In this document: one piece after another, positions 1,787 to 55,286 of the stretch
Layout: each line of letters begins with the position of its first letter
How positions within the stretch are numbered: position 1 is the first letter of the stretch
DNA from: an uncultured Desulfobacterales bacterium
GTDB taxonomy: Bacteria > Desulfobacterota > Desulfobacteria > Desulfobacterales > JAHEIW01
Length of the DNA: 64,000 nt
Assembly (NCBI GenBank): GCA_947259495.1
Contig: CAMYLV010000014.1
Location: forward strand, 13,761 to 77,760
Direction of reading: 5' to 3'
Translations under genes and position numbers: made by a program
The notes under the pieces: generated by a model
What the model was told of the DNA's origin: nothing
The model's database searches: none
The model's input: the letters and a program-made list of their open reading frames with translations, nothing else

Positions 1787-1972
1787 TTAATGAAAAATAA
1801 ATGCCAGGTAAAGCACGCCGGCCAAAACCAGAAGGTAGAACACCTTTTTATAAGCCGGACTGCCTTCGTGCACGAGGACCATTTTTTCCACGACATTATT
1901 GAATCGTGCCGTAATTTCCCCATCATCCTGTCTGTAGACGAATGCTTCTCCTTTTTTTTCAATCTTTCCCAT
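1787..1972 (-). CDS. small membrane protein (61 aa), unknown function
   Basis: ORF MGKIEKKGEAFVYRQDDG... with a C-terminal hydrophobic helix, packed tightly between operon genes. Confidence 0.4.
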   Translation of the reverse strand: MGKIEKKGEAFVYRQDDGEITARFNNVVEKMVLVHEGSPAYKKVFYLLVLAGVLYLAFIFH

Positions 1973-1996
1973 TTAAGCCTCTCATGTGATTACTTC

Positions 1997-2025
1997 AATC
2001 TTGCATGAAAATTAATGAGAAGTTG
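1997..2025 (+). repeat. short dispersed motif AATCTTGCATGAAAATTAATGAGAAGTTG (family R2), copy a
   Basis: Near-identical strings occur at 20203-20240, 35133-35162 and, reversed, at 10710-10755. Confidence 0.7.
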
Positions 2026-2027
2026 TA

Positions 2028-3569
2028 TTAAAATAGATTTTTAACAGCCATTTCAGCCAGACCCAGCAGATGAAATGCATCCGGGAAGAAGAAGAAAATC
2101 ACTGAAAAAAGGGCCGTCAGCGCCAGGGGCACGATCATGAAGAGATACAAGGGTCTTTCCATTTCCAGAAATCGAATTTTACCGCCGTCGGCCACGGAAG
2201 CTTCGGCGGGGGTATCGAAAAAGGCGGTTTTAACGATCGGAAAAAAATAGACAACATCCAGCAAAGAACTGGCCAGGATGACGATCAGAAAAATAATAGC
2301 TCCGGCCTGGATGGTTCCTAAGCCGAGAAACCATTTGCTGATGAAACCGGACACGGGCGGTGCCCCGCACATACCGAGGGCACCAATGGTAAACGCCAGC
2401 ATGGTCACCGGCATTTGTTTGCCGACGCCGGCCATTTGGCTGATTTCTTTTTTGCCGGTTACCACCATGATAGCCCCGGCGCAGAGAAAGAGGGTGATTT
2501 TCATAAATCCATGAAACGGAATGTGGACCATGGCGCCCTTGATGCCGAAAGGACTCAACAGGGCCACACCGAAAAGAATATACGACAATTGACTGATCGT
2601 GGAGTATGCCAGCCGACGCTTCAGATTGTCTTCGCCGATGGCAAAAAATGACCCCAGGATCATCGTTATGGAGGCAACGGCTCCCAGCCAAAGGCCGATG
2701 CCGAGTTCGCCGATCAACTCGATTCCAAACACATGACATACAATTCTGACAAATCCGAACACCCCCGCTTTGACAACTGCGACGGCGTGCAACAATGCGC
2801 TGACCGGGGTTGGCGCCACCATCGCACTGGGAAGCACCGGGGTTGGCGCCACCATCGCACTGGGAAGCCAGGAATGAAAAGGCATCCAGGCCGCTTTTAT
2901 GGAGCCCAAAGCGAAAAGAACGAACAATACAATGAGGGTCGATCCGGAAGCTGAAGCAGAGCCTAAAATCCCCCCATCGGCAAAGCGTGTCGTTCCGGTA
3001 ATCGCGTATGTCAGCACCACCGCCGCAAACAGAAACCAGCCCGAGGAGAGCAAATATACGAGGTATTTGCGGGTGGCGGCGAATGCTTCTTTGTCTTCAT
3101 GATGCGCCACCAGCCAATAGGTTGACAGGGTAAGGGCTGCATAAAAAATATAAAAAGTAACCAGATTTTCAGACAGGGCAATACTGACCGCAGAAAAAAT
3201 GGCCAGGGCAAACATAAAATAATAGCGCGTTTGAGCATGTTCTTCTAATGATCGCATGTAGCCGATGGAATACAGCGAAACCAGTATCCACAGGAAAGAA
3301 GAGGTGATGGCAAAAATCAGGCCGAATGCATCCACCCGATATCCCAGCTCGATGCCGGCTCCGATATCGATGATACGGAAGGTAAGGAAACCCCCTTCCA
3401 AGATGGCCGGTGCCATTGAGATAATAATCGCAAATTGAATTACCGCGGCAAGGATGGTGGTGCCTTCCCGGATATTGGCATGTTTGCGCAGTAAAAAAAT
3501 TCCAGGCGCCGCAATCATCGGACAGATAACGGCCAGCAACGGCTTAATGGATGGTACCATTTCCGTCAT
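2028..3569 (-). CDS. NuoL/MrpA-type antiporter-like subunit (513 aa)
   Basis: [29 protein letters not shown] is the NuoL/MrpA signature. The protein is polytopic. Its ATGA start overlaps the upstream gene. It carries a 33-bp in-frame duplication. Confidence 0.9.
   Translation of the reverse strand: [513 protein letters not shown]
2803..2868. repeat. perfect 33-bp tandem duplication inside the coding sequence
   Basis: accggggttggcgccaccatcgcactgggaagc occurs twice back to back (2803-2835 and 2836-2868). This yields [22 protein letters not shown]. Confidence 0.95.
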
Positions 3570-5065
3570 CGGGACCCCAAACCGAATGTTGAATTTACTG
3601 CATCAAGAACAGGCGTGATGATTCCGGTCATCCAAACAATACCGACCGCAAACGTTAGGCCCCCAAAAATAAGACTCGGGATCAGCATGCTCAACGGGGC
3701 CTCGGCAATCTGGAGATCCGATGGGTTGCTAACCGGTGTTGTGCGTATATAAATGATCTCAATCAATCGCCAAAAGTAGACGATCATCAGCAGAGTGCTG
3801 ACAAAGATAAAAATAAGGAACGGGTACTTTTGGGCATCGAGTATTGCCAGAATAAGATACCATTTGGTGACAAACCCCGCACTGGGCGGCATTCCAATCA
3901 TCGCCAGAATGGCTAACAAAAGCGCAAAACAGGTGAAAGGCATTCGCCGGCCGAGACCTGCAAATTTTCGAATATCCCATAAATCGAATTTATAAATAAA
4001 CGCACAGGCAGCCATGAACATACAGGCTTTGATCACGGCATGATTCAATATATGTATCAGTGCCGGGCTTAAACCCTGCGTGCAAAACGGCGCCAAACCG
4101 ATGGCCAACACGATATATCCGACATTAGCAATGCTCGAATAGGCCAGCATTTTCTTGAAATTATTTTGAACGATGGCAAAGATGGATCCGGCGATCATGG
4201 CGATGGCGGCCATCCAGCACAGAATGTCGAATACCGGCAGAAAGCCTTTGATAAAATCCAGAGTGAAAACCGAGAAGATCACCCGGATGAGCGCATAGAC
4301 GGATGTTTTGGCCACCGCCGTGGATATGATCACGCTCACCGCCGAAGGGGCATAGGTATAGGCATCCGGCTGCCAGGTGTGCAGAGGAAACAGGGCGATT
4401 TTAATTCCGAATCCGATAAAGATAAATACGAAAGCGGCTTGAATGACTTTGGTCTCATACAGAGGCGGAAGAATCATGCGCAGATCTGCCATGTTTAGCG
4501 ATCCCGTCATGATATACAGATAGCCGATACCGATCAGATAAAAGCTGGCGCCGATGGTTCCAATGATCAGATACCTTATGCTGGCAAACCTTGCGCGTCC
4601 TTTACCAATGGCGACCAGCGAATATCCGGTAAGGGATGCAACCTCCAGCAGCACAAAAAGATTAAACAGATCTCCGGTAACAATGATTCCCAGGATTCCG
4701 GTATTCAGCAGGAGGTAAAGACACCAGAACAGTGCGACAGACCCCGGCATCTCGGCTTCGACGGTTCTTTTGGCGTAAATGGCGGTAAACAGGCAAAGCG
4801 AGGATACCAGTACCAGCATAAAGGCATTGAGGTGGTCCACATAGTATTCGATACCCCACGGGGGCTCCCAGCCTCCCAGCCAGTAATGGATGGCACCTCC
4901 GGTAGTCACCGACTTAAGAATACCAATGGAAAGCAAAACGCAGCAGATCAGAGCGCCGATTGCCAGGGGAAAGCCAGCCCGCTGCACCCACCACCCCGAA
5001 AAAAATATGAAAAAAGACACGACAAGCGGAAGGACAACAATAATGGCTGGTAACTGGTGGCTCAT
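3566..5065 (-). CDS. MrpD/NuoM-N-family antiporter-like subunit (499 aa)
   Basis: FPLHTWQPDAYTYAPSAVSVIISTAVAKTSVY motif, about 14 predicted TM helices, and a stop that overlaps the next start. Confidence 0.9.
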   Translation of the reverse strand: MSHQLPAIIVVLPLVVSFFIFFSGWWVQRAGFPLAIGALICCVLLSIGILKSVTTGGAIHYWLGGWEPPWGIEYYVDHLNAFMLVLVSSLCLFTAIYAKRTVEAEMPGSVALFWCLYLLLNTGILGIIVTGDLFNLFVLLEVASLTGYSLVAIGKGRARFASIRYLIIGTIGASFYLIGIGYLYIMTGSLNMADLRMILPPLYETKVIQAAFVFIFIGFGIKIALFPLHTWQPDAYTYAPSAVSVIISTAVAKTSVYALIRVIFSVFTLDFIKGFLPVFDILCWMAAIAMIAGSIFAIVQNNFKKMLAYSSIANVGYIVLAIGLAPFCTQGLSPALIHILNHAVIKACMFMAACAFIYKFDLWDIRKFAGLGRRMPFTCFALLLAILAMIGMPPSAGFVTKWYLILAILDAQKYPFLIFIFVSTLLMIVYFWRLIEIIYIRTTPVSNPSDLQIAEAPLSMLIPSLIFGGLTFAVGIVWMTGIITPVLDAVNSTFGLGSR

Positions 5066-5083
5066 ATCTTCATCACATCGATA

Positions 5084-5566
5084 TCACGTGCTGAACAAAT
5101 TCTGCATGTCCGGATGATTCTGAATTGCCTGTCGAAACTGACCCGTGCGATAATCGAGTCGCTTTTTAATGATCACCAAAAGTCGCTGGTACATGCGCAA
5201 TCCCATCTCCGGATCCTGCCCAAAAAGTTTTTGTATCCTGTCTCTTTTAAAAGAGTAAATTTCAGATGGCTCCACGCAGACGGCATCGACGGTATATAAA
5301 CCGTCCTCGCTCATTGCCGACCAGCCGAAAGAATACCCGGGTTTAATGGACCCAATGCATGCTGTAACCTTGTCGGAAATTCTTTGCTCCAGCAGTACAT
5401 TGCCCGATCTCATCATGTAGAATCGTTCAGCGGGATCATTCTCTCGGAATAGTATTTCGTCGCGATCGAATTTCAAAATATCGATAATTTGAGCTAAATT
5501 ATCCAGCATGGGATCCGTCAGGTAAGTCAGCATGACGATTTGTTTTAAATCTTCTTTGGTTATCAT
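5084..5566 (-). CDS. cyclic-nucleotide-binding-like domain protein embedded in the mrp operon
   Basis: A beta-roll-like sequence ...ILFRENDPAERFYMMRSGNVLLEQ...GYSFGWSAM.... GGAGGA lies 6 nt before the ATG at 5566. The longer ORF from 5587 overlaps the mrpC stop as ATGA. Confidence 0.7.
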   Translation of the reverse strand: MITKEDLKQIVMLTYLTDPMLDNLAQIIDILKFDRDEILFRENDPAERFYMMRSGNVLLEQRISDKVTACIGSIKPGYSFGWSAMSEDGLYTVDAVCVEPSEIYSFKRDRIQKLFGQDPEMGLRMYQRLLVIIKKRLDYRTGQFRQAIQNHPDMQNLFST

Positions 5567-5583
5567 CCCCTGTCCTCCATGAA

Positions 5584-5979
5584 TCATTCATCCTTCAGCT
5601 GGGCCAGAATTTCATCCTCTTCAAGCGTTTGGTATTGTTGGAATACCTTAATCACGAGTGCCAGTGCGACCCCCAGGGTTGCCACGGCTACGACAATCGC
5701 GGTAAGCATCAGCACATGCGGCAGCGGATTAATATAATCTGTCGCCTGGATAGCGTGGCTTTCAGCTGCATGGCCGTGTATGATAATGGGTATGGTGGCC
5801 TTATTTTTGGCACCCAGAGATATAAAGAATAAAATGACAGCGGTTTGAAGTATGTTCATCCCGATAATTTTTTTCACCAGGTTTTTCTTGGCAATCATGG
5901 CATACAGGCCGATCATCATCAGCACAATGTAGATCCAGTAATTTAACTTGGACATGATAATCGAGATCAGCTCGTTCAC
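5584..5979 (-). CDS. mrpC: Mrp subunit C (NuoK-like)
   Basis: 131 aa with three TM helices, and the NLVKKIIGMNILQTAVILFFISLG motif typical of MnhC/NuoK. Confidence 0.85.
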   Translation of the reverse strand: MNELISIIMSKLNYWIYIVLMMIGLYAMIAKKNLVKKIIGMNILQTAVILFFISLGAKNKATIPIIIHGHAAESHAIQATDYINPLPHVLMLTAIVVAVATLGVALALVIKVFQQYQTLEEDEILAQLKDE

Positions 5980-5981
5980 CT

Positions 5982-6812
5982 TTATAATCCCTCGTCATGC
6001 CTACCTGCCGAAGCCAGGTTATAGTAAAGATGGACCATGACCGCCATCACACAGATACCGACTCCAATTTCCACCATTAAGATCCCATGGGATCTTGCCG
6101 TGACCGGGTCCACGCCGAAAATCTTTGATAATGCGCCATAATCCAGATAGTTTGATCCCAAAAAGATACTCAAGGCCCCGGTTCCAGCATAGATGAAAAC
6201 CCCAAGACCACAAAGCAGAACGGCAAACTTTTCACTGATGCGGGTAAAACTCGATCGCAGGTTGTGGGATATGGCAAACAAAATTATCGAAGCGCCCAGG
6301 ATGACGCCGCCCTGAAATCCGCCGCCCGGACTGTGATGACCGTGGGCAATGACATACAGGGCAAATATCTGGCTGAATGGAACGATGAGACGCGCGCTGG
6401 TTTTGATAATCAAATCATAAGGGACCCACATCAGATCGATTCTCTCAAATTCCCTGGACTCCCGGGGGGGCTCGGCCCCTTTTGCGATACGAAGGGTGAT
6501 CCCGGTGGGAATGTGTCGATACAGCTGCGTTTCGGGTTCAATCCGTTTGAAAATCCGCAGCAGGAAGAGGCAGGCAACGCCGGCGGAAAAAATGACAATG
6601 GTTTCAAACATCGTATCGTATCCCCGGTAATCCGCCAGTACGGCCGTGACAATATTGGGGACCGAGGTTTCCTCCATGGTGCGTTCGATATAACGGGGCG
6701 ACACATGCATACTGGCCGGTGCCTGCGGATCACCCCAGGAAGGAAAGTCCAGAGTACAATAAATCAGAAGACCCCCGAACAGAAGCACAATGAATATGGC
6801 CAGTGTCTTCAA
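5982..6812 (-). CDS. mrpB: Mrp subunit B (MnhB domain)
   Basis: NIVTAVLADYRGYDTMFETIVIF and HGHHSPGGGFQGGVILG motifs. I place the start at the TTG at 6812, which is preceded by AAGGAGG and overlaps the upstream TGA. The Arg/His-rich N-terminus of the 342-aa ORF is discarded. Confidence 0.75.
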   Translation of the reverse strand: MKTLAIFIVLLFGGLLIYCTLDFPSWGDPQAPASMHVSPRYIERTMEETSVPNIVTAVLADYRGYDTMFETIVIFSAGVACLFLLRIFKRIEPETQLYRHIPTGITLRIAKGAEPPRESREFERIDLMWVPYDLIIKTSARLIVPFSQIFALYVIAHGHHSPGGGFQGGVILGASIILFAISHNLRSSFTRISEKFAVLLCGLGVFIYAGTGALSIFLGSNYLDYGALSKIFGVDPVTARSHGILMVEIGVGICVMAVMVHLYYNLASAGRHDEGL

Positions 6813-7054
6813 TCTTTTGTCCTCCTTGAGGTGCGAAAAACCGTCGCAACGAAAAGCACGGTGCTGATGCCGGCACCAACGGAAGCTTCGGTAAAAGCCA
6901 CATCGACCGCCCCCATGATGGCCCACAGCAGGCACATCATAAAGCTGTAGGCGCCGAAAAGTATGGCGGCTCCCAGCAGGTCTTTGACCGTGATGGCGCC
7001 GATGCCGCAAATGATAACGATCAATAAAACCACGAGTTCAATCTGCCAGATCAT
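6809..7054 (-). CDS. DUF4040 / MbhD-like subunit (equivalent to the MrpA C-terminal domain)
   Basis: 81 aa with AVDVAFTEASVGAGISTVLF, matching the (A)PDVALTEAAVGAG motif of DUF4040. Confidence 0.75.
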   Translation of the reverse strand: MIWQIELVVLLIVIICGIGAITVKDLLGAAILFGAYSFMMCLLWAIMGAVDVAFTEASVGAGISTVLFVATVFRTSRRTKD

Positions 7055-7371
7055 GATTGATCTTCCTTTGTCCAGGGTTTGAGACCGGCCCGCACCCCGG
7101 CGTCCACAATGGCATGCGTGGCTGTCGGGCTGGTGATATAAACGATAATAACGATTAAAACGATCTTGGTTGCCGTTAAAAAATTATGTAAAGAGAAATC
7201 TTGAAGCACAAACACGGCAATCGCCGACAACGTCAGCAACTGACCGGCGGTATCCAGTTTTCCGGCCGGATGCAGCCGGGAGTAAAAATCGGGCAATCGC
7301 AGAATACCGATAGAGCCGCCCGTAAAAAAAGCCAGACCGCTGAACAAAAGAATCATCACAATAATTTTCAT
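7051..7371 (-). CDS. mrpG: Mrp subunit G
   Basis: GSIGILRLPDFYSRLHPAGKLDTAG is the MnhG signature. Confidence 0.85.
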   Translation of the reverse strand: MKIIVMILLFSGLAFFTGGSIGILRLPDFYSRLHPAGKLDTAGQLLTLSAIAVFVLQDFSLHNFLTATKIVLIVIIVYITSPTATHAIVDAGVRAGLKPWTKEDQS

Positions 7372-7411
7372 TGATTCTGCCTCCTTGCCGCCTTACCGCC
7401 TTGTTTGATGA

Positions 7412-7699
7412 TCAAACAGGTGGTTTTTCCTCAAATAAGCCCCTTTTTTTCTGGAAATAACGTGAAGCCGCCAGCACGGCAATAAAGTTCAGCAATGCAT
7501 ACGCCAGTGCGATATCAACAAACATGTCCACCCGACCGTAGATCAAACCGACCAGTACCAGCAGGACAGTTGTTTTACTGCCGATGGCATTCACGCCGAT
7601 GAGGCGATCCAGAACGGTCGGACCGAAAATCGCCCGGTAAAGGGACAGCAACATAATCAGGCTCAGGTAGAAGCCACTGTAATAGAATACGGTGTCCAT
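7412..7699 (-). CDS. mrpF: Mrp subunit F
   Basis: 95 aa with three TM helices and the MnhF-like sequence YRAIFGPTVLDRLIGVNAIG. Confidence 0.8.
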   Translation of the reverse strand: MDTVFYYSGFYLSLIMLLSLYRAIFGPTVLDRLIGVNAIGSKTTVLLVLVGLIYGRVDMFVDIALAYALLNFIAVLAASRYFQKKRGLFEEKPPV

Positions 7700-7706
7700 T
7701 ATTTGC

Positions 7707-8270
7707 TTATTCTGGGAAGACCTTGACTATTTTTGATTCCATGTCACCTGGAAGGGCTTGACCGGATTTGTCGTCAATGCAATGAACCGAAAACCGACCC
7801 AGCACCGTCACATTCACGGTAATCGTACCGGGGGTCAGGGTGATGGAGTTGGCAAAAGTCGTACGCGCGTAATCGCTTTTTAACTCACTATCAAACTCGA
7901 TGATCTGTGGGTTGATGAGTTCCATCATCTTAGGATGGAACACCAGATACATGACGTGTAGGTTTGCTAAAAATATCTGGTAAATCAGCCAGGGGATGTA
8001 TGCGAACAGCCGAATCCACAGCCTGAATATGCCCCGGGGCTCGTGTGAGGTAAACATCAGATCGCCCGAAAAGGCGGCCACGATGGCACTGGATATGAGG
8101 CCCAAGGTGATGTGAAATCCATCGAATCTGCCGGAGAATATGATCCATACTACAAACAGAATCACAAACGAAAGAATAAAGGTGGCACCAAACCGTTTGG
8201 CCCTTGATGTTTTGGAAGGGTTCTCTTCAGAAGGGGCATTTCTTGAGGTTGGTTGAAAATCTTTTCCCAA
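7707..8270 (-). CDS. mrpE: Mrp subunit E
   Basis: ANSITLTPGTITVNV is the MnhE motif. It is the first gene of the operon. Confidence 0.8.
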   Translation of the reverse strand: MGKDFQPTSRNAPSEENPSKTSRAKRFGATFILSFVILFVVWIIFSGRFDGFHITLGLISSAIVAAFSGDLMFTSHEPRGIFRLWIRLFAYIPWLIYQIFLANLHVMYLVFHPKMMELINPQIIEFDSELKSDYARTTFANSITLTPGTITVNVTVLGRFSVHCIDDKSGQALPGDMESKIVKVFPE

Positions 8271-46508: not shown

Positions 46509-46901
46509 ATAATTACTTTTTTTGTCGATTCGTCTCGGGGCACGATTGGTTCTCATTAGGATGCAAAACCGGCAAAGAACTTATGGATTTCCCTATTGAA
46601 TGAAGAGGGTTATCTTCATACGACAAATTACATTATCATTGAGACGTTGGCTCTGCTTCAGAGCCGTTTGGGTTTTGAAGCGGCCTATCTTTACTCCGGC
46701 GACATTTTAGGACTTGTAGATATCTTATGGGTGCATGAGCCAAGTCATAAGAGGGCTTTTGAACTCTGGCTCAGTTTGGGCTAAAATAAATTAAGCCTCG
46801 TCGATTGTGTTAGCTTTACAACCATGCGCCATTACGAACTTGAAAACGTATTTGGATTTGACAAGCATTTTAAAGAACAGGGCTTTAAGATATTAGATTA
46901 A
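46509..46901 (+). pseudogene. PIN-domain (VapC-like) toxin pseudogene
   Basis: A single frame reads ..ITFFVDSSRGTIGSH-TAG-DAKPAKNLW...IIIETLALLQSRLG...ELWLSLG-TAA-NKLSLVDCVSFTTMRHYELENVFGFDKHFKEQGF. It has two in-frame stops and no ATG. Confidence 0.65.
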
Positions 46902-47151: not shown

Positions 47152-47490
47152 ATGGAGATTCACAACAGAATGGAGAACGGAGTTTTAATCATTACGATCG
47201 ATGGCCGCCTGGACGCCTCTAGTGCACCGCTTGCCGAAGAGGAAATTAAAAAAGCACTGGAGGGAGAGCAAAACCGGTTGCTTTTTGACTTAAGTTCGTT
47301 GGAGTACCTCAGCAGTGGCGGGTTGCGGGTTATTCTGGGGGCTGCCAAGGAAATCAGACGCAGAGATGGCAAGGTGGCGTTAGCCGCCCTGAAAGAATAC
47401 GTTTATGAAATTTTTGAAGTCAGCGGTTTTACCGCCATGATTCCCGTTAAAGATACTGTTGAAGAAGGTCTTAAAGAAATTGCATCTTAG
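47152..47490 (+). CDS. STAS-domain anti-sigma-factor-antagonist-like protein 1
   Basis: SpoIIAA-like ...LLFDLSSLEYLSSGGLRVILGAAKE.... Confidence 0.85.
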   Translation: MEIHNRMENGVLIITIDGRLDASSAPLAEEEIKKALEGEQNRLLFDLSSLEYLSSGGLRVILGAAKEIRRRDGKVALAALKEYVYEIFEVSGFTAMIPVKDTVEEGLKEIAS

Positions 47491-47572
47491 AAACCGTCTT
47501 GGCAAGCGGAATAAATATCGACGATAAACCTTTACTCGACACCAGGTTTCCCTGAACAGGAAAGTATGACTC

Positions 47573-48928
47573 ATGATGCCAGATAATAGCGCAGCAGAAG
47601 CCATCCTGCTGGTGGACGACAATCCCACCAATCTTCAACTGCTGTTTGAAACCCTTGACGGCCGCGGCTATAAACTGCTGATTGCCAAAGACGGCAAAAC
47701 AGCGCTTTCGATTGCCGGCAAGGCCCACCCGAATCTAATTTTGCTGGACATCATGATGCCGGAAATCGATGGCTATGAAGTCTGCCGCCAATTAAAAGCC
47801 GACCCGGCCACTGCGGAGATACCGGTTATTTTTCTTTCGGCCCTGACAGACACCACAGACAAGGTTCATGGACTGGATCTGGGTGCGGTGGATTATGTTA
47901 CCAAGCCGTTTCAGCCCGATGAGGTCATTGCCAGAGTCAATACTCACCTGACCGTTTATCGGCTTAAACAAGCCCTGGATGAAAAAAATGAAGAGTTGCT
48001 GGAGGCCAACGATCTTTTAGAAGAACGCGTCAAAAAACGCACGGCCCAGCTGGCTGAATTAAACACGGCCTACGAACGCTTTGTCCCGCGGGAGTTTTTA
48101 GGCCTATTGAAGAAGGAAAGCATTTTAGAGGTTGAATTAGGGGATCAAATTGCACAGCAGATGACTGTGATGTTCTCCGATATCCGGGGTTGGACCACCA
48201 TTTCAGAAGAGATGTCGGCTCAGGAAAGCTTTAATTTTATCAATGCCTTTTTAAATCGGGTCAGCCCGGTGATCAACGCCCACCGAGGGTTTATCGACAA
48301 CTTCCAGGGTGACGGCATGATGGCGCTTTTTCCGGAATCAACCGATGACGCCGTCCAGGCAGCGATTGCCATGCACGTGGCGGTAGCAGAATATAATCAA
48401 GACCGCCAGCAAAATGGGTTTCAGCCCATCGGCATTGGGGTGGGGCTGCACATTGGCGATCTGATGCTCGGCATCATCGGCCACGCAGAGCGCATGCAGG
48501 GAACGGTGGTGGCCGATGCGGTCAATCTGGCATCGCGCCTAGAAGGTTTGACGCGCGTATATGGCTCCTCGATCAGCATCAGTGAGCCAACCCTGTCGCA
48601 GTTTAAAGATCCCGACCAATACAAACATCGTTTCGTCGATAAGGTTCAGGTAAAAGGCAAAAAGGACCCGGTTTCGGTGCATGAGGTCTTTGACGGCGAT
48701 CCGCCGTCAGTCATTGAATTGAAAGAACAGACAAAAGAGAATTTTGAACAGGGTTTATGTTTGTATTATGACCGCAAATTTTCCGAGGCCAGCGTCAAGT
48801 TTAACCAGGTGCTGGAAAAACATCCTGAAGATCGCGCCGCCCGCATCTATCTCAAACGCTCCGCCAACTATATGGTCAACGGGGTCCCGGATGATTGGAC
48901 TGGGGTTGAAATACTGACCCAAAAATAA
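47573..48928 (+). CDS. response regulator (REC) - class III adenylate/guanylate cyclase - TPR-like tail
   Basis: The REC motifs LLVDDNP...LLDIMMPEIDG...KP and the cyclase motifs MFSDIRGWT, FQGDGMMALF and VNLASRLE. Confidence 0.9.
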   Translation: MMPDNSAAEAILLVDDNPTNLQLLFETLDGRGYKLLIAKDGKTALSIAGKAHPNLILLDIMMPEIDGYEVCRQLKADPATAEIPVIFLSALTDTTDKVHGLDLGAVDYVTKPFQPDEVIARVNTHLTVYRLKQALDEKNEELLEANDLLEERVKKRTAQLAELNTAYERFVPREFLGLLKKESILEVELGDQIAQQMTVMFSDIRGWTTISEEMSAQESFNFINAFLNRVSPVINAHRGFIDNFQGDGMMALFPESTDDAVQAAIAMHVAVAEYNQDRQQNGFQPIGIGVGLHIGDLMLGIIGHAERMQGTVVADAVNLASRLEGLTRVYGSSISISEPTLSQFKDPDQYKHRFVDKVQVKGKKDPVSVHEVFDGDPPSVIELKEQTKENFEQGLCLYYDRKFSEASVKFNQVLEKHPEDRAARIYLKRSANYMVNGVPDDWTGVEILTQK

Positions 48929-49178
48929 TTTAAATTGAGCGTTCCAAATTTTAAAATAGAAATTCTATATTTGTTCCAAGGTATTCTATCGTTTTTATTT
49001 TTTAAAATTTGAAACCCTTCGGGATTGCCGATCTTACCGCATCTACTGCGTTAGATGCTGTCCCGCATAGTCAACTATAGCGAAACAACATCTGCCTTGT
49101 AGCTACGGCAATCCTCCAGAGGCGGATCTACAGTCCTCCGAAGGCGGATCTTCGACCTCGACAATCGCTCAATTTAAA
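48929..49178 (+). repeat. R3 MITE-like repeat, copy B
   Basis: 13-bp terminal inverted repeats, tttaaattgagcg / cgctcaatttaaa. It has the same core as copy A plus an extra 44-nt segment with the direct repeat tcctcc.gaggcggatct x2. Confidence 0.8.
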
Positions 49179-49236
49179 TAAAAAATGAGCACTTCAAATT
49201 TTAGCATAAGGATAAATCTGTTTCTGGGAAAACGCA

Positions 49237-52200
49237 ATGAAGCTTAAATATAAATTATTGCTGCTTTATGCCGGTGCGGCTTTTTTTATTATGCTGGTGA
49301 TCGGCAGCTTTCTGTCATCGGCGTTAAAAGATATCACAATCGAGAGAATTGCCAGAAATTACCGCGAACAGCTGAAACACATCGATTTCGGGCTGTCCCG
49401 TTTAATCAAGGGCATTGAGCATGATTTAGAGGCCATTGCCCAAAACGAATTTGTGCGCTCCCGCGAAGATGAAAATTTTACATCCTTTCTGGATGCCGAC
49501 GAAAAATCCTTTGAATATAATTACGGGGAGCCGGAGCAGCGTATCATTTCGATATTCAACGGGTACCGCACAACCCACCCTTATGTCCATTCAGTTTACA
49601 TGGGACGTGAAAACGGCAGCTTCGTTCGTTCCCACAAACGCGCCCGTCCCACCCGCTATGACCCCAGAACCCGGCCCTGGTACGTTGAGGCGAAAGAAAA
49701 TCCCGCAACGGTTGTGCGAACACCGCCGTTTCGCTCGGTAACCACACCCGATGTCAGCATCGGATTCGTGAAAGCCATGCTTGATCCCGCGGGAACTCTA
49801 TACGGGGTTGTAGGCACTTCAATCACCCTGAAAGAACTCACCCAATATATCGCGAATATCAAACTCGACTATAACGGCCATGTTGTGCTGGCCGATAAAA
49901 AAGGCACCATTCTGGCGGGGCCAGATCAATCGGCATTGTTTACCAGTTTAAAATCTACTGATCCCCAACTGTTCGAAGATATTTATACCAATGTCGATGG
50001 GATTACCATCTTCGAAAAGGATGACCAAAAACGCTATGCATTTTATTATACCTCGCCGCTGATGGAGTGGAAGCTGGCCGCCATCGTTCCGGCTGCCGAA
50101 ATCAACAAAGTGATCCGGGTATTTGTTTTAAAAATCTTAGCGGCGCTATTTGTTGCGCTTTTGCTGCTCAGCGTGCTGACAATGATGGGCCTGCAGAGTT
50201 TTGTGATTAAGCCCTTAAAAATGCTCAACGTGGGAACCGATCATATCAAACAGACCGGTGAGCTCGATTACCGGATTGAAATAAAATCCAATGACGAACT
50301 CGGCAGCCTGGCGCAGTCGTTCAACGAAATGATCAGCTCCATCGACCAGGCGGAGTCCGCCCTGAAAGCATCAGAAGCGGAGCTCAAAAAGCATCGTGAT
50401 CACCTCGAAGAACTGGTCGCAGAACGTACCGCCGACCTGTCAAAATTAACGGAGGCTTTGGAGCAAAGCCCGGCTTCTGTTTTGATCACAGATCGAAAGG
50501 GCATAATTGAATACGTGAACCCAACATTTACCAAACTGACCGGTTACACCGCTGCCGAAGCCCTAAAGCAAAATCCGAAAATTTTGAAATCAGGAAAAGT
50601 TTCCGAATCGACCTACCGGCAACTGTGGGAAACCATTGCATCCGGAAAAATCTGGAAAGGAGAACTGATAAATAAAAACAAGTCCGGTAAAGAAATCTGG
50701 GTCAGTGCATCCATATCGCCGATTTTTAACGAGGATGGCATCATCACCCATTTCGTAGGCGTTCAAGAGGATATCACCGCGCGTAAGGAAGTTGAAAAAA
50801 AGCTGAAAGAAAGCGAAGCTCGGCATCGCATGCTGCTGGAGAGACTGCCGGAATCTGTCGTTGTTTATGATATGGAAGGCAAGGCGATCTATATTAATCC
50901 CGCATTTGAACGAACTTTTGGATGGTCGCGTGAAGCGATACTGGGCAAAAAAATCGATTTCGTGCCGCCTGAACTGGAGGCCGAAACCCAAGCAGCCATC
51001 AAAAAAATGCTGGCAGCCGGAGATGAGTCGATGTTTTTTGAGACCCAACGACTGACAAAGAGTGGCGACGCCCTCGATGTGCAGCTCAATACAGCACCTT
51101 TTCATGATCCAAATGGCCGGCAGGTAGGCAATATCGTCATTCTAAACGATATTACCGAACGTAAGCGCATGGAAAATGAGCTTATCGAGGCCAAACACGC
51201 CGCGGTTGAGGCCAACATGGCCAAAGGTGATTTTTTAGCCAACATGAGCCACGAAATCCGCACCCCCATGAATGCGGTCATTGGCATGACCCACCTGGCG
51301 CTGAAAACCACGCTGACCCCCAAGCAGCAGGATTACCTGAACAAGATCCAGTCTTCGGCCAATTCACTGCTGGGCATTATTAATGACATTCTGGATTTTT
51401 CCAAAATCGAAGCCGGCAAAATGGACATGGAATCGGTGGATTTTAATCTGGATGATGTCCTGGATAATCTGGGCAATCTGATCAGTGTAAAAGCCCAGGA
51501 AAAAGAAAACCTCGAAGTGCTTTTCGCCACCGACCAGAATGTGCCGCGCTTTTTAGTCGGCGACCCCTTGCGATTAGGCCAGGTGCTGATAAATTTATCC
51601 AACAATGCGGTCAAGTTTACCGATACGGGGGAAATTGTCGTTTCCACCGAATTGGTCAGTCAAGAGGAAGACCGGGTCACATTAAAGTTTGCGGTCAGAG
51701 ACACCGGCATCGGCCTTACCGAAGAGCAGACCGGCAAACTGTTTCAGTCGTTCACCCAGGCCGACACCTCCACCACCCGCAAATACGGCGGCACCGGACT
51801 GGGGTTGGCCATCAGTAAAAAACTGGCAAATATGATGGGCGGAGAAATCTGGGTGGACAGCGAGCCCGGCCGGGGCAGTACCTTTAGCTTTACAGCTTCT
51901 TTCGGTTCAGGGCGGGAAGATGTGAAAAAACGCTTCGCTCCGGAACGTGATCTGCGCGGCATGAAGGTTTTAGTAGTAGATGATAATCCCACCTCCAGAG
52001 AAATTTTGCGCGATTTGCTGGAATCATTTTCGTTTAAAGTCACACTGGCGGCCGGCGGTCAGGAGGGCATTACCGAAATTGAAAAGGCCGACAAAAGCAA
52101 ACCTTTTGAAATGGTCATCATGGACTGGAAAATGCCGGGAATCGACGGTATCGAAGCCTCCAAGCGTATCAAGGAACATTCCGGGCTGAGCCATGTTCCC

Positions 52201-53493
52201 CATATTGTTATGGTGACCGCCTACGGACGTGAAGAGGTGATGCGAAAAGCCGAACAGGTAGGCCTGGATGGTTTTCTGCTCAAACCGGTCAGCCCCTCGG
52301 TGCTTTTTGACACCATCATACAGGCGCAAGGTGACGAAGTGCCTGATACGTTACGCATTATGCAGGACCAGGAAGAAGTTGAAGCGTTAGCGCTGATCAA
52401 GGGAGCCAAAATACTGCTGGTGGAAGACAACGAAATTAACCAGCAGGTGGCCAAAGAAATTCTCGCGGGTGCAGGCCTGATCGTCGGCCTGGCCGATGAC
52501 GGCCAGCAGGCGGTCAATATGGTCAAAGAAAACCCATATGATGCTATCCTTATGGACATCCAGATGCCGGTTATGGATGGGTATGCCGCTACTAAAGCAA
52601 TTCGGAAGTGGGAAGGCGGAATGCGGAAAAAAGGTAAAGATCGAATTCCGATCATAGCCATGACGGCGCACGCCATGGCCGGTGATGAAGAAAAAAGCCT
52701 GCAGGCCGGCATGAACGGCCATGTCACCAAGCCCATTGATCCGGATCAGCTGTTTGCCGCATTGCAGAAATGGATCCGGTCGTCAGACGAGCGCGCAACG
52801 GTTGAGCCCGCGGATGTTGCGACCCCCCGGACGGCTGCAGGTGAGCACAGAGCAGACACCCATGAATTGCCCGACAGTCTGCCGGGTTTTGAGCTGGCCG
52901 AAGGACTCAACCGGCTGCAGGGCAATCAAAAACTTTACCGCAAACTGCTGCTGGATTTTGGTGTCACATACACCGAAGTTGCTGCCGAAATCCGGGATGC
53001 GCTGGCTGCCGGAGATTTAAAACAGGCCCACAGCCTGGTTCACAATATCAAGGGCCTGGCCGGAAATCTGGCGGCTACCGAGCTGCAGGCCGCCGCAGTG
53101 GATTTTGAAAAACTGATCAAAGGGGATCAAAAGCCGGCAGCATCCAAAAAGCAGCTCGGCCGAATATTCGAAAACCTGGAAACAGCCATCAATCGGGCAC
53201 TCAAAGCGGTTGAATCATTAGGCCCCGCACCAGGAAAAACAACCGCTGCACCGTCGAAAGACGAATTGGCGGCCATCTCCCCGCAGCTGGCAAAGGAAGC
53301 GGCCGGTCTGCTCAAAGACCCTGTTGATCTGGGTGACGTCACCCAGATCAAATCAATTGCGCAGGAACTAAAATCAAAATCCAACGTATTTGAAGCATTC
53401 AGTGATCAATGCATTCAATTCGCCGAGGACTTTGACTTCGAGGGTATCGCCAAACTGGTCGGTGAGTTGGAAAAAATCGCCAGAGAGGGTTAG
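49237..53493 (+). CDS. hybrid sensor histidine kinase: dCache-TM-HAMP-PAS x2-3-HisKA-HATPase-REC-REC-Hpt
   Basis: The H-box [16 protein letters not shown] and the G-boxes [13 protein letters not shown]. Two receivers (VLVVDDNP...[10 protein letters not shown] and ILLVEDNE...[10 protein letters not shown]). The Hpt motif is [16 protein letters not shown]. Confidence 0.9.
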
Positions 53494-53703
53494 CCGGCTT
53501 GCCGGTTGAGTGGGTTAGGGCGTTAATCGAGCTCATGTTTCTTTGAATATCGAATATCGAACAAGGAATGCAGAAGTAAGAAGGTCTTTGGTCATCAACA
53601 CTTCGACATTCTCACTCTATAAGCTATCTCAAAATTAGCAGTTCATCTTCGAAGACAGAGAAAAAAAGTTCCAAAGGTGCTCTAATGAGATGGCTTCAAG
53701 TAC

Positions 53704-54852
53704 CTACTGAACGATACCCAGCAGCAGCGCCTGGTCATCATCGGCCGGACGCCCGTTGGCAAAATTATTTACATCCTTCATGATTTCGGTGAGCAGTTCC
53801 TGGGGCTGAAGATCACCGCCGGCTTCAAGCTGCCGCAACAGCCGTTCTTCCCCGTATGTCTCCCCATTCGTATTAAAGCGTTCGGTAATCCCATCGGTGT
53901 ACATCAGAATGCGATCACCTGCGTGCAGCTCGGCTTCGGTCACCGGCACCTGCTCGTAGGGATCAATTCCCAAGGGGAACACGCCGCTGCAGGCATACTC
54001 GATCGCTTTTTTCTCAGCAGACTGGTAGATCATCGGCGGCGGATGGCCGGCGCGTGCAATCTTCAGGGTGCGGCGGCTGGCGTCGTAGACAACATATAAA
54101 GCGGTGACAAAGCTGGGGTCAGCGACTTTACACAGATGCTCGTTGAGAAAATACAACAGCTCGCCGGGCTCGGTGGGGGGTTGCGGGTAGGATCGGAAAA
54201 GCGCGCAGGTCATGGCCATCATCACCGCTGCCGGTGCACTGTGCCCCTCGGCATCGGCCACCAGAAAACCCCACTGATCGTCCGTCATTTGAACAAGGTC
54301 GTAATAGTCACCGCCGGCATACAGACTGGTTTCGTAATGTACGGCAAGCTTTAAGCCTGCTATTTCGGGCAGACCCTTGGGCAACAGCCGGCGCTGGACG
54401 ACGGAGACGACCTCGAGTTCATCTTCGAGCGCATCCTTTTTCTCTTCGACTTCGCGTTTGAGTCGATGAATGGTCAGGTGGGTGTCTACCCGCGCAATCA
54501 CTTCGTCCGGCTGAAACGGCTTGGAAACATAGTCAACCGCTCCCAGCTGAAGTCCCTGGACTTTGTCTTTGGTATCGGTGAGCGCCGATAGAAAAATGAC
54601 AGGGATGTTGGCCGTGGCGGGGTCCGCTTTCAGACGGCGACAGACTTCAAAGCCATCGATTCCGGGCATCATGATGTCCAGCAGGATCAAATCCGGCGAG
54701 GCCTTTTGAGCGATGGACAGCGCTGTTTCGCCGTTTTTAGCCACCAGAAGCTTACACCCGGTGGTTTCAAGGGTCTGATAGAGGACCTGCAGATTGGTTG
54801 GGTTATCGTCTACAAGCAGTAAAGATTCATTTTCCCGGCTGTTTTCTGGCAT
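53704..54852 (-). CDS. response regulator (REC) - PP2C/SpoIIE phosphatase (RsbU-like)
   Basis: The REC domain is nearly identical to that of 47573-48928. The PP2C motifs are GGDYYD, VADAEGHS and YTDGITE. Confidence 0.9.
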   Translation of the reverse strand: MPENSRENESLLLVDDNPTNLQVLYQTLETTGCKLLVAKNGETALSIAQKASPDLILLDIMMPGIDGFEVCRRLKADPATANIPVIFLSALTDTKDKVQGLQLGAVDYVSKPFQPDEVIARVDTHLTIHRLKREVEEKKDALEDELEVVSVVQRRLLPKGLPEIAGLKLAVHYETSLYAGGDYYDLVQMTDDQWGFLVADAEGHSAPAAVMMAMTCALFRSYPQPPTEPGELLYFLNEHLCKVADPSFVTALYVVYDASRRTLKIARAGHPPPMIYQSAEKKAIEYACSGVFPLGIDPYEQVPVTEAELHAGDRILMYTDGITERFNTNGETYGEERLLRQLEAGGDLQPQELLTEIMKDVNNFANGRPADDDQALLLGIVQ

Positions 54853-54950
54853 CCGCTATTCCTTCAGCATATTCTCATAACATACAACTTAAGGGATTGT
54901 TTCAAAAAGGTAAGGCTGCCGATCTGATACTAACTCATTTCTTTGATGTA

Positions 54951-55286
54951 CTAACTCACTTCTTTAATGCCCGCTTCAACAGAATCCGTAATAGGAATAA
55001 TTGCACCGAATCCGCTGACCTCAAACACTTCTTTCACATAGGCATTGAGGGCGCACAGAACAAATTTACCGTCTCGGCGTTTTATTTCTTTGGCAGCACC
55101 TAAAACCACCCGCAGGCCGGCACTGCTTAGATATTCAAGCTTCGCGAAGTCGAAAAGGAGCCGATTATTTTCACCTTCCAGGATGCTTTTAACGGCCTGT
55201 TCAGCTTCCGTCGCAGATGACCCATCCAAACGACCATTAAAGGCCAGAAAAACAATCCCGTTTTCTACCTTTTGACTGATTTCCAT
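54951..55286 (-). CDS. STAS-domain anti-sigma-factor-antagonist-like protein 2
   Basis: About 62% identical to STAS 1 by hand count (69/111). Confidence 0.85.
   Translation of the reverse strand: MEISQKVENGIVFLAFNGRLDGSSATEAEQAVKSILEGENNRLLFDFAKLEYLSSAGLRVVLGAAKEIKRRDGKFVLCALNAYVKEVFEVSGFGAIIPITDSVEAGIKEVS

Follow-up and report, generated by a model that had tools for sequence, protein, structure and literature searches.

We describe a five-gene signaling locus at positions 47152-55286 of a 64,000-nucleotide stretch of DNA (here the window) from contig CAMYLV010000014.1 (C14) of an uncultured Desulfobacterales bacterium (GenBank assembly GCA_947259495.1). Two modules, each consisting of a gene for a small STAS protein followed by a gene for a protein with a receiver (REC) domain, face each other there across one giant hybrid histidine kinase that carries its own Hpt domain. 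The two STAS-REC modules are true paralogues with unrelated outputs, a class III nucleotidyl cyclase in one and a PP2C phosphatase in the other. Based on comparative sequence analysis, we propose with a probability of roughly 0.55 that the locus encodes a multistep phosphorelay with two outputs, linked to a partner-switching network for which the Ser kinase would come from elsewhere in the genome. The locus comprises:

47152-47490, plus strand: STAS1, 112 amino acids, a single-domain STAS protein of the anti-sigma-antagonist type (Pfam STAS, 81.8 bits).
47573-48928, plus strand: REC-class III nucleotidyl cyclase (REC-cyclase), 451 amino acids (Pfam Response_reg, 100 bits; Guanylate_cyc, 68 bits), with a PleD-type REC domain at 47603-47938, the cyclase domain at 48152-48667 and a helical/TPR-like tail.
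48929-49236, plus strand: cyclase-kinase spacer, 308 nucleotides (nt), rich in direct and inverted repeats.
49237-53493, plus strand: hybrid sensor histidine kinase, 1418 amino acids, with Pfam domains dCache (49396-50082), HAMP (50203-50343), PAS (50452-50775 and 50836-51168), HisKA (51220-51417), HATPase_c (51559-51897), REC1 (about 51967-52296), REC2 (52411-52764) and Hpt (52948-53175; 36 bits).
53704-54852, minus strand: REC-PP2C phosphatase (SpoIIE/RsbU-type), 382 amino acids (Pfam SpoIIE, 163 bits; Response_reg, 109 bits), with REC at 54487-54819, PP2C at 53722-54282 and no C-terminal kinase domain.
54951-55286, minus strand: STAS2, 111 amino acids, a single-domain STAS protein (Pfam STAS, 67.9 bits).

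The open reading frames (ORFs) and Pfam matches bear out the layout, domains and strands that a preliminary description of this DNA had read from the sequence. STAS1 precedes the REC-cyclase gene by 83 nt and STAS2 precedes the REC-PP2C gene by 98 nt, and the REC-PP2C and kinase genes are convergent with a gap of 210 nt between them. The translations show no loss of catalytic or phospho-acceptor motifs in any of the five proteins. The phosphorylatable Ser context that had been pointed out in both STAS proteins (EYLSSGGL and EYLSSAGL) is kept as LEYLSSGGLRV in STAS1 and LEYLSSAGLRV in STAS2, and SS(G/A)GLRV is invariant in all 22 aligned STAS1 and STAS2 orthologues. The SpoIIE profile match covers 186 of its 192 positions in the REC-PP2C protein, whose metal-binding motifs are readable as GGDYYD, VADAEGHS, YTDG and ADDDQ. 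Likewise readable in the kinase are the H-box SHEIRTP, the receiver motifs DWKMPGIDG and DIQMPVMDG, and the Hpt motif VHNIKG. Both terminal receivers carry LLDIMMP, FLSALT and KPF, which provide the acceptor Asp, the Ser/Thr and the Lys, respectively.

The paralogy of the STAS pair and of the REC pair is far beyond chance. STAS1 and STAS2 are 62% identical over 111 amino acids, as the preliminary description had it, and the stand-alone receivers are 80% identical over a 120-residue core, close to its hand count of about 78% over about 120 residues. Identity between the receivers is 74% over 142 residues and 69% over 156 residues when the linker helix is included; the similarity continues into the first turns of that helix and then ends. 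A comparison of the output domains of REC-cyclase and REC-PP2C found no similarity, in agreement with the earlier view that they are unrelated. Each module member has its counterpart as its closest paralogue in the 4.44-Mb genome, and the runner-up paralogues reach 36-39% identity for STAS and 43-45% for the receiver. The alpha-1 helices of the two receivers are near-identical (PTNLQLLFETL versus PTNLQVLYQTL), which, together with the 80% identity of the REC cores, fits a shared phosphodonor. At the DNA level the two modules are 69-74% identical with a longest identical run of 19 nt, and the duplication is therefore old, older than the radiation of the genus, without homogenization. Recent gene conversion and a recent inverted duplication were rejected on the same figures.

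The closest public relatives of the source genome are metagenome-assembled genomes (MAGs) named "Desulfobacterales bacterium," and the mirrored layout is conserved across this genus. An orthologue of REC-PP2C (85-93% identity) was found in 19 of the 21 other genus genomes, and most of them also have a REC-cyclase-type match. Where contigs are long enough to span the locus, the same convergent layout, with REC-PP2C about 7 kb from REC-cyclase, is present in G006, G007, G010, G011, G013, G014, G018, G021 and MAG L035; the loci L034 and L037 end inside the kinase or cyclase gene. In all, at least nine genus genomes, L035 not counted, have the complete mirrored locus on one contig. Every genus locus recovered keeps the convergent arrangement, the common direction of REC-cyclase and kinase, and the adjacency of STAS1 to REC-cyclase. 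Within the genus, STAS1 orthologues are 69-89% identical and STAS2 orthologues are 81-91% identical. The preliminary description would have given up its model had the arrangement been unconserved and the paralogues unrelated on proper alignment; instead, the layout is a property of the genus and both pairs are genuine paralogues.

Outside the genus the parts are found in other combinations. Orthologues of REC-PP2C occur in four other genera at 61-70% identity, and kinase orthologues in the window's genus and in a second genus of the same family, here g2 (G022 and G024), are 53-69% identical, those of g2 accounting for 53-58%. The g2 locus has no cyclase arm and consists of a co-directional row of an ORF (orf183), a distant STAS (121 amino acids, about 30% identity), the kinase orthologue and REC-PP2C. 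In G032, REC-PP2C lies upstream of the kinase. The kinase and REC-PP2C are thus adjacent through three gene orders in three families (convergent in the window's genus, co-directional downstream in g2 and upstream in G032), which supports kinase-to-REC-PP2C coupling. In G034, from another family, the STAS/REC-PP2C pair (68% and 70% identity) stands alone between SpoU and RsbRD_N-DsrM-DsrK. The window has these same flanks, and the whole STAS1/REC-cyclase/kinase block is absent there.

The STAS plus REC-cyclase arm is peculiar to this genus. In a set of 80 loci of other taxa that encode relatives of the REC-cyclase or its receiver, a STAS gene adjoins REC-cyclase only in close Desulfobacterales MAGs, and a general association of STAS with REC-cyclase was not found. 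The sole other STAS neighbor in these 80 loci belongs to an HsbR/HsbA-like pair in a Pseudomonadales MAG (L088), in which a 535-amino-acid HsbR-like protein is followed by a downstream STAS. We also found no literature report of a STAS protein partnered with a class III cyclase.

How the second arm arose can be read in two ways. In the REC tree, the cyclase-linked receivers group with the REC-PP2C proteins that are linked to a kinase in g2 and G027 (89/81), and the genus's own REC-PP2C forms a separate clade (96/92); a single in-genus REC clade was not rejected by the approximately unbiased (AU) test (p = 0.15). The PP2C-domain tree joins the genus to G034 weakly (71/65), and a species-like grouping with g2 is disfavored without being rejected (p = 0.083). 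The STAS1 clade is well supported (100/97) and sits on a long stem inside a group of STAS1, STAS2 and the G034 protein, in which the tree leaves the branching order unresolved. The STAS1 and STAS2 clades can be told apart at sixteen positions, one of which directly follows the phospho-Ser pair (SSG versus SSA), and the G034 STAS shares about equally many of these diagnostic states with either clade. It is possible that one cassette was duplicated and then swapped its output, as the preliminary description suggested; equally open is a mixed origin in which STAS1 would derive from the STAS-linked module and its receiver from the kinase-linked lineage. The earlier claim of a duplicated STAS-REC cassette with exchanged outputs thus stands as regards true paralogy, and the swap is one of two histories compatible with the REC tree. 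The phylogenies that it had called for to date the duplication secured the STAS1 clade and were indecisive on the order of events in the REC, PP2C and STAS trees.

The cyclase domain combines an intact catalytic center with an unusual substrate site. When aligned to Cya2, CyaB and bPAC, it retains the metal-binding Asp pair along with the transition-state Asn and Arg (FSDIRG, QGDGMM and AVNLASR). A Lys/Asp pair marks adenylyl cyclases and Glu marks guanylyl cyclases (PMC4215837). Four residues before the second metal-binding Asp, the first base-specifying position is occupied by Asn (IDNFQGDG), and the same alignment places Thr at the second specificity position. This Asn is invariant in all aligned genus orthologues, and the nearest homologues outside the genus keep Lys, with Glu in one. 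Given the invariant Asn in place of Lys or Glu, the product cannot be named with confidence as cyclic AMP, and the cyclic AMP synthesis put forward in the preliminary description is not secure. Rv1900c is an active cyclase that also carries Asn at the Lys position. Across the genus, the cyclase domain is 88-92% identical, which indicates purifying selection on an enzyme.

The genome contains seven class III cyclase domains and only three Hpt domains, and one of the two Hpt domains other than that of the window is encoded in an operon on contig C23 (L129, G000:C23:50000-58000, 2955-7994, minus strand). This second relay is a co-directional row, without a STAS gene, of a CHASE-PAS-GAF hybrid kinase (1212 amino acids), a free 110-amino-acid Hpt protein and a REC-cyclase (335 amino acids; Guanylate_cyc, 186 bits). 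The C23 operon therefore provides an in-genome precedent for signaling from an Hpt to a REC-cyclase.

The preliminary description had found no RsbW-type kinase and no sigma factor in the locus, leaving the STAS proteins without a known partner. This is correct for the locus and for contig C14, on which no HATPase_c_2 (RsbW-type) match was found, and does not extend to the genome: the search for HATPase_c anti-sigma kinases that it had recommended returned two small RsbW-type kinases, on contigs C13 and C7. The C13 kinase (150 amino acids, 87.6 bits) lies between a 174-amino-acid protein predicted to bind cyclic nucleotide monophosphates (cNMP) and a third STAS protein, STAS3, which is the third-closest STAS and has the same phospho-site motif (DYISSAGLRVIL). 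The whole C13 row (L011, G000:C13:272000-283000, 1921-5966, plus strand) consists of an 836-amino-acid ABC transporter fusion, the cNMP-binding protein, the RsbW-type kinase and STAS3, and neither a sigma factor nor a PP2C was found near it. The C7 kinase (163 amino acids) is an orphan, without a STAS neighbor also in a better-assembled orthologous locus. Sigma70_r2 has eight matches in the genome, none of which is on C14 or C7 or within 140 kb of the C13 RsbW gene.

Exactly three small STAS proteins of the partner-switch type are encoded in the genome, namely, STAS1, STAS2 and STAS3; a fourth small STAS (C31) was rejected as a partner-switch component given that it adjoins MlaE and is thus MlaB-like. 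Neither RsbW-type kinase adjoins a PP2C, and the REC-PP2C of the window is the only phosphatase encoded beside any of the three STAS genes. The loci are therefore complementary. The cNMP-binding and RsbW genes are adjacent in all 21 genus members searched and in G034, G027 and G029, and their adjacency is kept in four families. Their pairing therefore predates the cyclase arm and does not depend on it, and we rejected an exclusive co-occurrence of the two. RsbW orthologues of at least 48% identity are present in genomes that hold REC-PP2C (the genus, G022, G027 and G034) and also in G023, where the kinase is followed by a 254-amino-acid REC-only protein; most genomes without a REC-PP2C orthologue yielded no such RsbW orthologue. 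Further RsbW-type matches, which form a third group with 43-51% identity to the C13 kinase, contain one or more in-frame stops, mostly TGA (G018:C18, G013:C657, G010:C67, G008:C247, G009:C123 and G006:C48). The source genome is rich in selenoproteins, and these matches may be pseudogenes or recoded genes.

From these data we infer the phosphotransfer steps, the identity of the Ser kinase and the downstream target of the following circuit, for which a branched relay from the single Hpt would be the most economical reading. The dCache/PAS hybrid kinase would autophosphorylate and relay the phosphate from His to Asp and on to the His of the Hpt domain, which would then phosphorylate both of the closely related PleD-type receivers. 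Phosphorylation of REC-PP2C would set its phosphatase activity toward phospho-STAS2 and probably phospho-STAS1, and this activity would fix how much free, unphosphorylated STAS is available to bind an RsbW-type kinase or another target. The Ser kinase would be supplied in trans by one of the two RsbW-type proteins, from either the C13 operon or the C7 orphan gene. In the parallel arm, phosphorylation of REC-cyclase would set the synthesis of a cyclic nucleotide whose identity is uncertain given the Asn at the base-specifying position. Coupling of the kinase to REC-cyclase is supported by their common direction, by the similarity of the receivers and by the C23 precedent, and its coupling to REC-PP2C is supported by the analogous RsfS/RsfR, RsbK/RsbY and HptB/HsbR/HsbA systems.

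Several observations weigh against this proposal. The STAS/REC-PP2C pair of G034 sits at the same chromosomal site without a kinase, which means that the STAS/REC-PP2C module is able to function with some other phosphodonor. Between the cyclase and kinase genes the spacer is long and differs among the orthologous loci of the genus, from about 160 to 450 nt by ORF coordinates, and a consensus promoter and terminator scan of the locus gave counts close to those of shuffled sequence; co-transcription is therefore a possibility at most. No sigma factor or other target was found near any of the three loci. RsbW was not found in G024 (87% complete) or in G032 (60% complete), and with such exceptions the phyletic match of RsbW and REC-PP2C among close kin offers weak support. 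The Lys-to-Asn change could lower the activity of the cyclase, and the source organism is known from MAGs only.

We considered that the two arms might be separate pathways that share a neighborhood, with the kinase feeding REC-cyclase only and an older resident STAS2/REC-PP2C pair at the dsrMKJOP-SpoU site using another kinase or acetyl phosphate. This is unlikely, and it is the foremost of the alternatives. In its favor, the G034 pair stands between SpoU and RsbRD_N-DsrMK without a kinase or cyclase arm, and this reading draws further on the decayed PIN gene (described below) and the repeat-rich spacer that mark the borders of the STAS1/cyclase/kinase block, on the grouping of the cyclase-linked receiver with the g2 kinase-linked REC-PP2C rather than with the genus's own, and on the weak union of the genus with G034 in the PP2C tree. 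However, neither of these tree nodes is significant by the p values given above, and the 80% identity between the receivers also covers the alpha-1 specificity helix. A kinase orthologue lies beside REC-PP2C in both g2 and G032, and kinase-to-REC-PP2C coupling is therefore the older association; every recovered genus locus, moreover, keeps the convergent arrangement.

Somewhat more doubtful is the idea that STAS1 directly regulates REC-cyclase through its phosphorylation state, as HsbA does with HsbD, which would make the cyclase arm itself a partner switch. The constant adjacency of STAS1 and REC-cyclase in the genus, the documented HsbA-HsbD interaction (PMC5085249), and the long STAS1 stem with its 16 diagnostic positions (SSG versus SSA among them), which suggest a new partner, all point this way, and the cNMP-binding gene that precedes the RsbW gene in four families would close the loop. 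That adjacency could, however, simply come from the duplication, no STAS lies beside REC-cyclase outside the genus in the 80 loci, the literature gave no precedent, and a cNMP-binding/RsbW pair is likewise present in three genomes (G034, G027 and G029) that yielded no orthologue of this REC-cyclase. An extended form of this idea, which is less probable again, would have STAS1 as a phosphorylation-dependent partner of the cyclase and a noncanonical cNMP read by the cNMP-binding protein encoded upstream of RsbW, in one closed single-kinase loop possibly tied to dsrMKJOP control. Least probable of all, in our estimate, is a cyclase that is weak or inactive through the Lys-to-Asn change, with REC-cyclase acting mainly as a phosphate sink or scaffold that tunes the flow from Hpt to REC-PP2C. 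Changes of substrate-binding residues in class III cyclases often lower activity rather than convert specificity (PMC4215837), and the base-site Asn occurs in all genus orthologues where the nearest outside homologues have Lys; the intact metal-binding Asp pair, the intact transition-state Asn and Arg and the 88-92% identity of the domain nevertheless favor a working enzyme, as does the activity of Rv1900c with Asn at this site.

The proposed relay resembles known kinase-controlled partner switches, and the locus shares with RsbK/RsbY and RsfS/RsfR a linked histidine kinase and a REC-PP2C without a kinase domain. In RsfS/RsfR, a REC-PP2C of this kind dephosphorylates a STAS protein under the control of Asp phosphorylation (PMC10950880). 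As in RsfS/RsfR-RsfB of Mycobacterium smegmatis (PMC10950880) and RsbK/RsbY-RsbV of Bacillus cereus (PMC4574943), a histidine kinase would control such a phosphatase, which would act on a single-domain STAS antagonist, and, as in the RsfSR system, the final target would be encoded elsewhere. The present locus differs in that its hybrid kinase contains two receivers and an Hpt domain of its own for a multistep relay, its RsbW-type Ser kinase lies outside the locus with no linked sigma factor, and it has a second, paralogous STAS and REC module ending in a class III cyclase. Of the parts of a partner-switching operon, it holds STAS proteins with a phosphorylatable Ser and a PP2C phosphatase but no RsbW gene and no sigma factor or other target; because the kinase and target are absent, it is not a self-contained partner-switching operon.

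Another parallel is the HptB-HsbR-HsbA(-HsbD) system of Pseudomonas aeruginosa (PMC5085249, PMC8256260, PMC6482189), in which an Hpt relay leads to a REC-PP2C that sets STAS phosphorylation. The STAS phospho-site of HsbA is very similar, and HsbA also communicates with a nucleotide cyclase. However, HsbR has a Ser kinase domain of its own at the C-terminus. The 382-amino-acid protein described here ends after PP2C, and for this reason the locus does not count as HsbR-type. Several kinases feed HptB, which is a free protein, whereas the Hpt here is fused to the kinase, and HsbD is a GGDEF diguanylate cyclase without an HsbR-paralogous receiver, whereas the class III cyclase here shares its receiver type with the phosphatase. 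SypE/SypA of Vibrio fischeri (cited in PMC8256260 and PMC10120452) likewise pairs a receiver-controlled PP2C with a STAS-only protein for a non-sigma output, but SypE joins RsbW, REC and PP2C in one chain, and the module has neither an Hpt kinase nor a cyclase. Phosphorelay-fed REC-class III cyclases such as that of the C23 operon share the fusion of REC to cyclase beside an Hpt-bearing relay; those loci have no STAS gene, and the aligned outside homologues carry Lys or Glu at the base site instead of Asn.

Further features of the locus and its surroundings deserve mention. The locus is flanked by DsrMK-type and NrfD-type redox genes and by a gene with an RsbRD_N domain. Between the latter and STAS1, at the left border of the STAS1/REC-cyclase/kinase block, lies:

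46509-46901, plus strand: interrupted PIN-like frame with two in-frame stops, whose translation reads FFVDSS... and IIIETLALL....

Its position matches the point at which G034 lacks the STAS1/cyclase/kinase block, and it may therefore mark an insertion border, a possible trace of an old insertion of the block. Copies of a 27-nt direct repeat lie at the two ends of the spacer at 48929-49236, which also contains a tandem 21-mer as well as an imperfect inverted repeat of 32 nt. Kinase residues from about 1314 to 1418 (53176-53493), some 100 amino acids past the Hpt domain, have no Pfam match and align to the genus and g2 orthologues up to residue 1411-1418, forming a conserved C-terminal tail. 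The orthologous kinases range from 1307 to 1688 amino acids within one genus (L025, L026, L035, L115, L116 and L117), and their alignment segments overlap in the PAS region, which suggests that they may differ in the number of PAS units; evolution appears to be much faster at the sensor end than at the transmitter end. In g2, orf183 (L027, 4806-5357, plus strand; 183 amino acids) stops 9 nt short of the distant STAS gene at the head of the operon. A search for a local kinase in that operon found none; orf183 gave no Pfam match, and it could be an unrecognized partner of the g2 STAS. In G034 (L029, G034:C109, 4813-10148, plus strand), RsbRD_N-dsrM-dsrK immediately follows the STAS/REC-PP2C pair in the same direction, and the same dsr neighborhood surrounds STAS/REC-PP2C in the window's genus. 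On the basis of these two related lineages, a link between the partner switch and control of the DsrMKJOP complex is a possibility.

In summary, kinase-controlled partner-switching circuits are already known, and this locus is a variation on them rather than a new kind of system. What is new is the conserved second arm, in which a paralogous STAS and receiver are joined to an atypical class III cyclase, and the splitting of the network over distant loci. Nearly all of the kinase-controlled partner switches studied so far have one output, a phosphatase, and are encoded next to their kinase, whereas here an input module of STAS and receiver was naturally duplicated, joined to a different enzyme and conserved in a genus of environmentally important sulfate reducers. 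The putative Ser kinase at a distant locus beside a cyclic-nucleotide-binding protein corrects the impression of STAS proteins that have no kinase. If the proposed wiring is true, the locus would offer a compact system in which one Hpt splits its signal between protein dephosphorylation and second-messenger synthesis, and it would show how paralogous STAS proteins keep or change their partners and how an Asn at the base site affects the choice of product by a class III cyclase.

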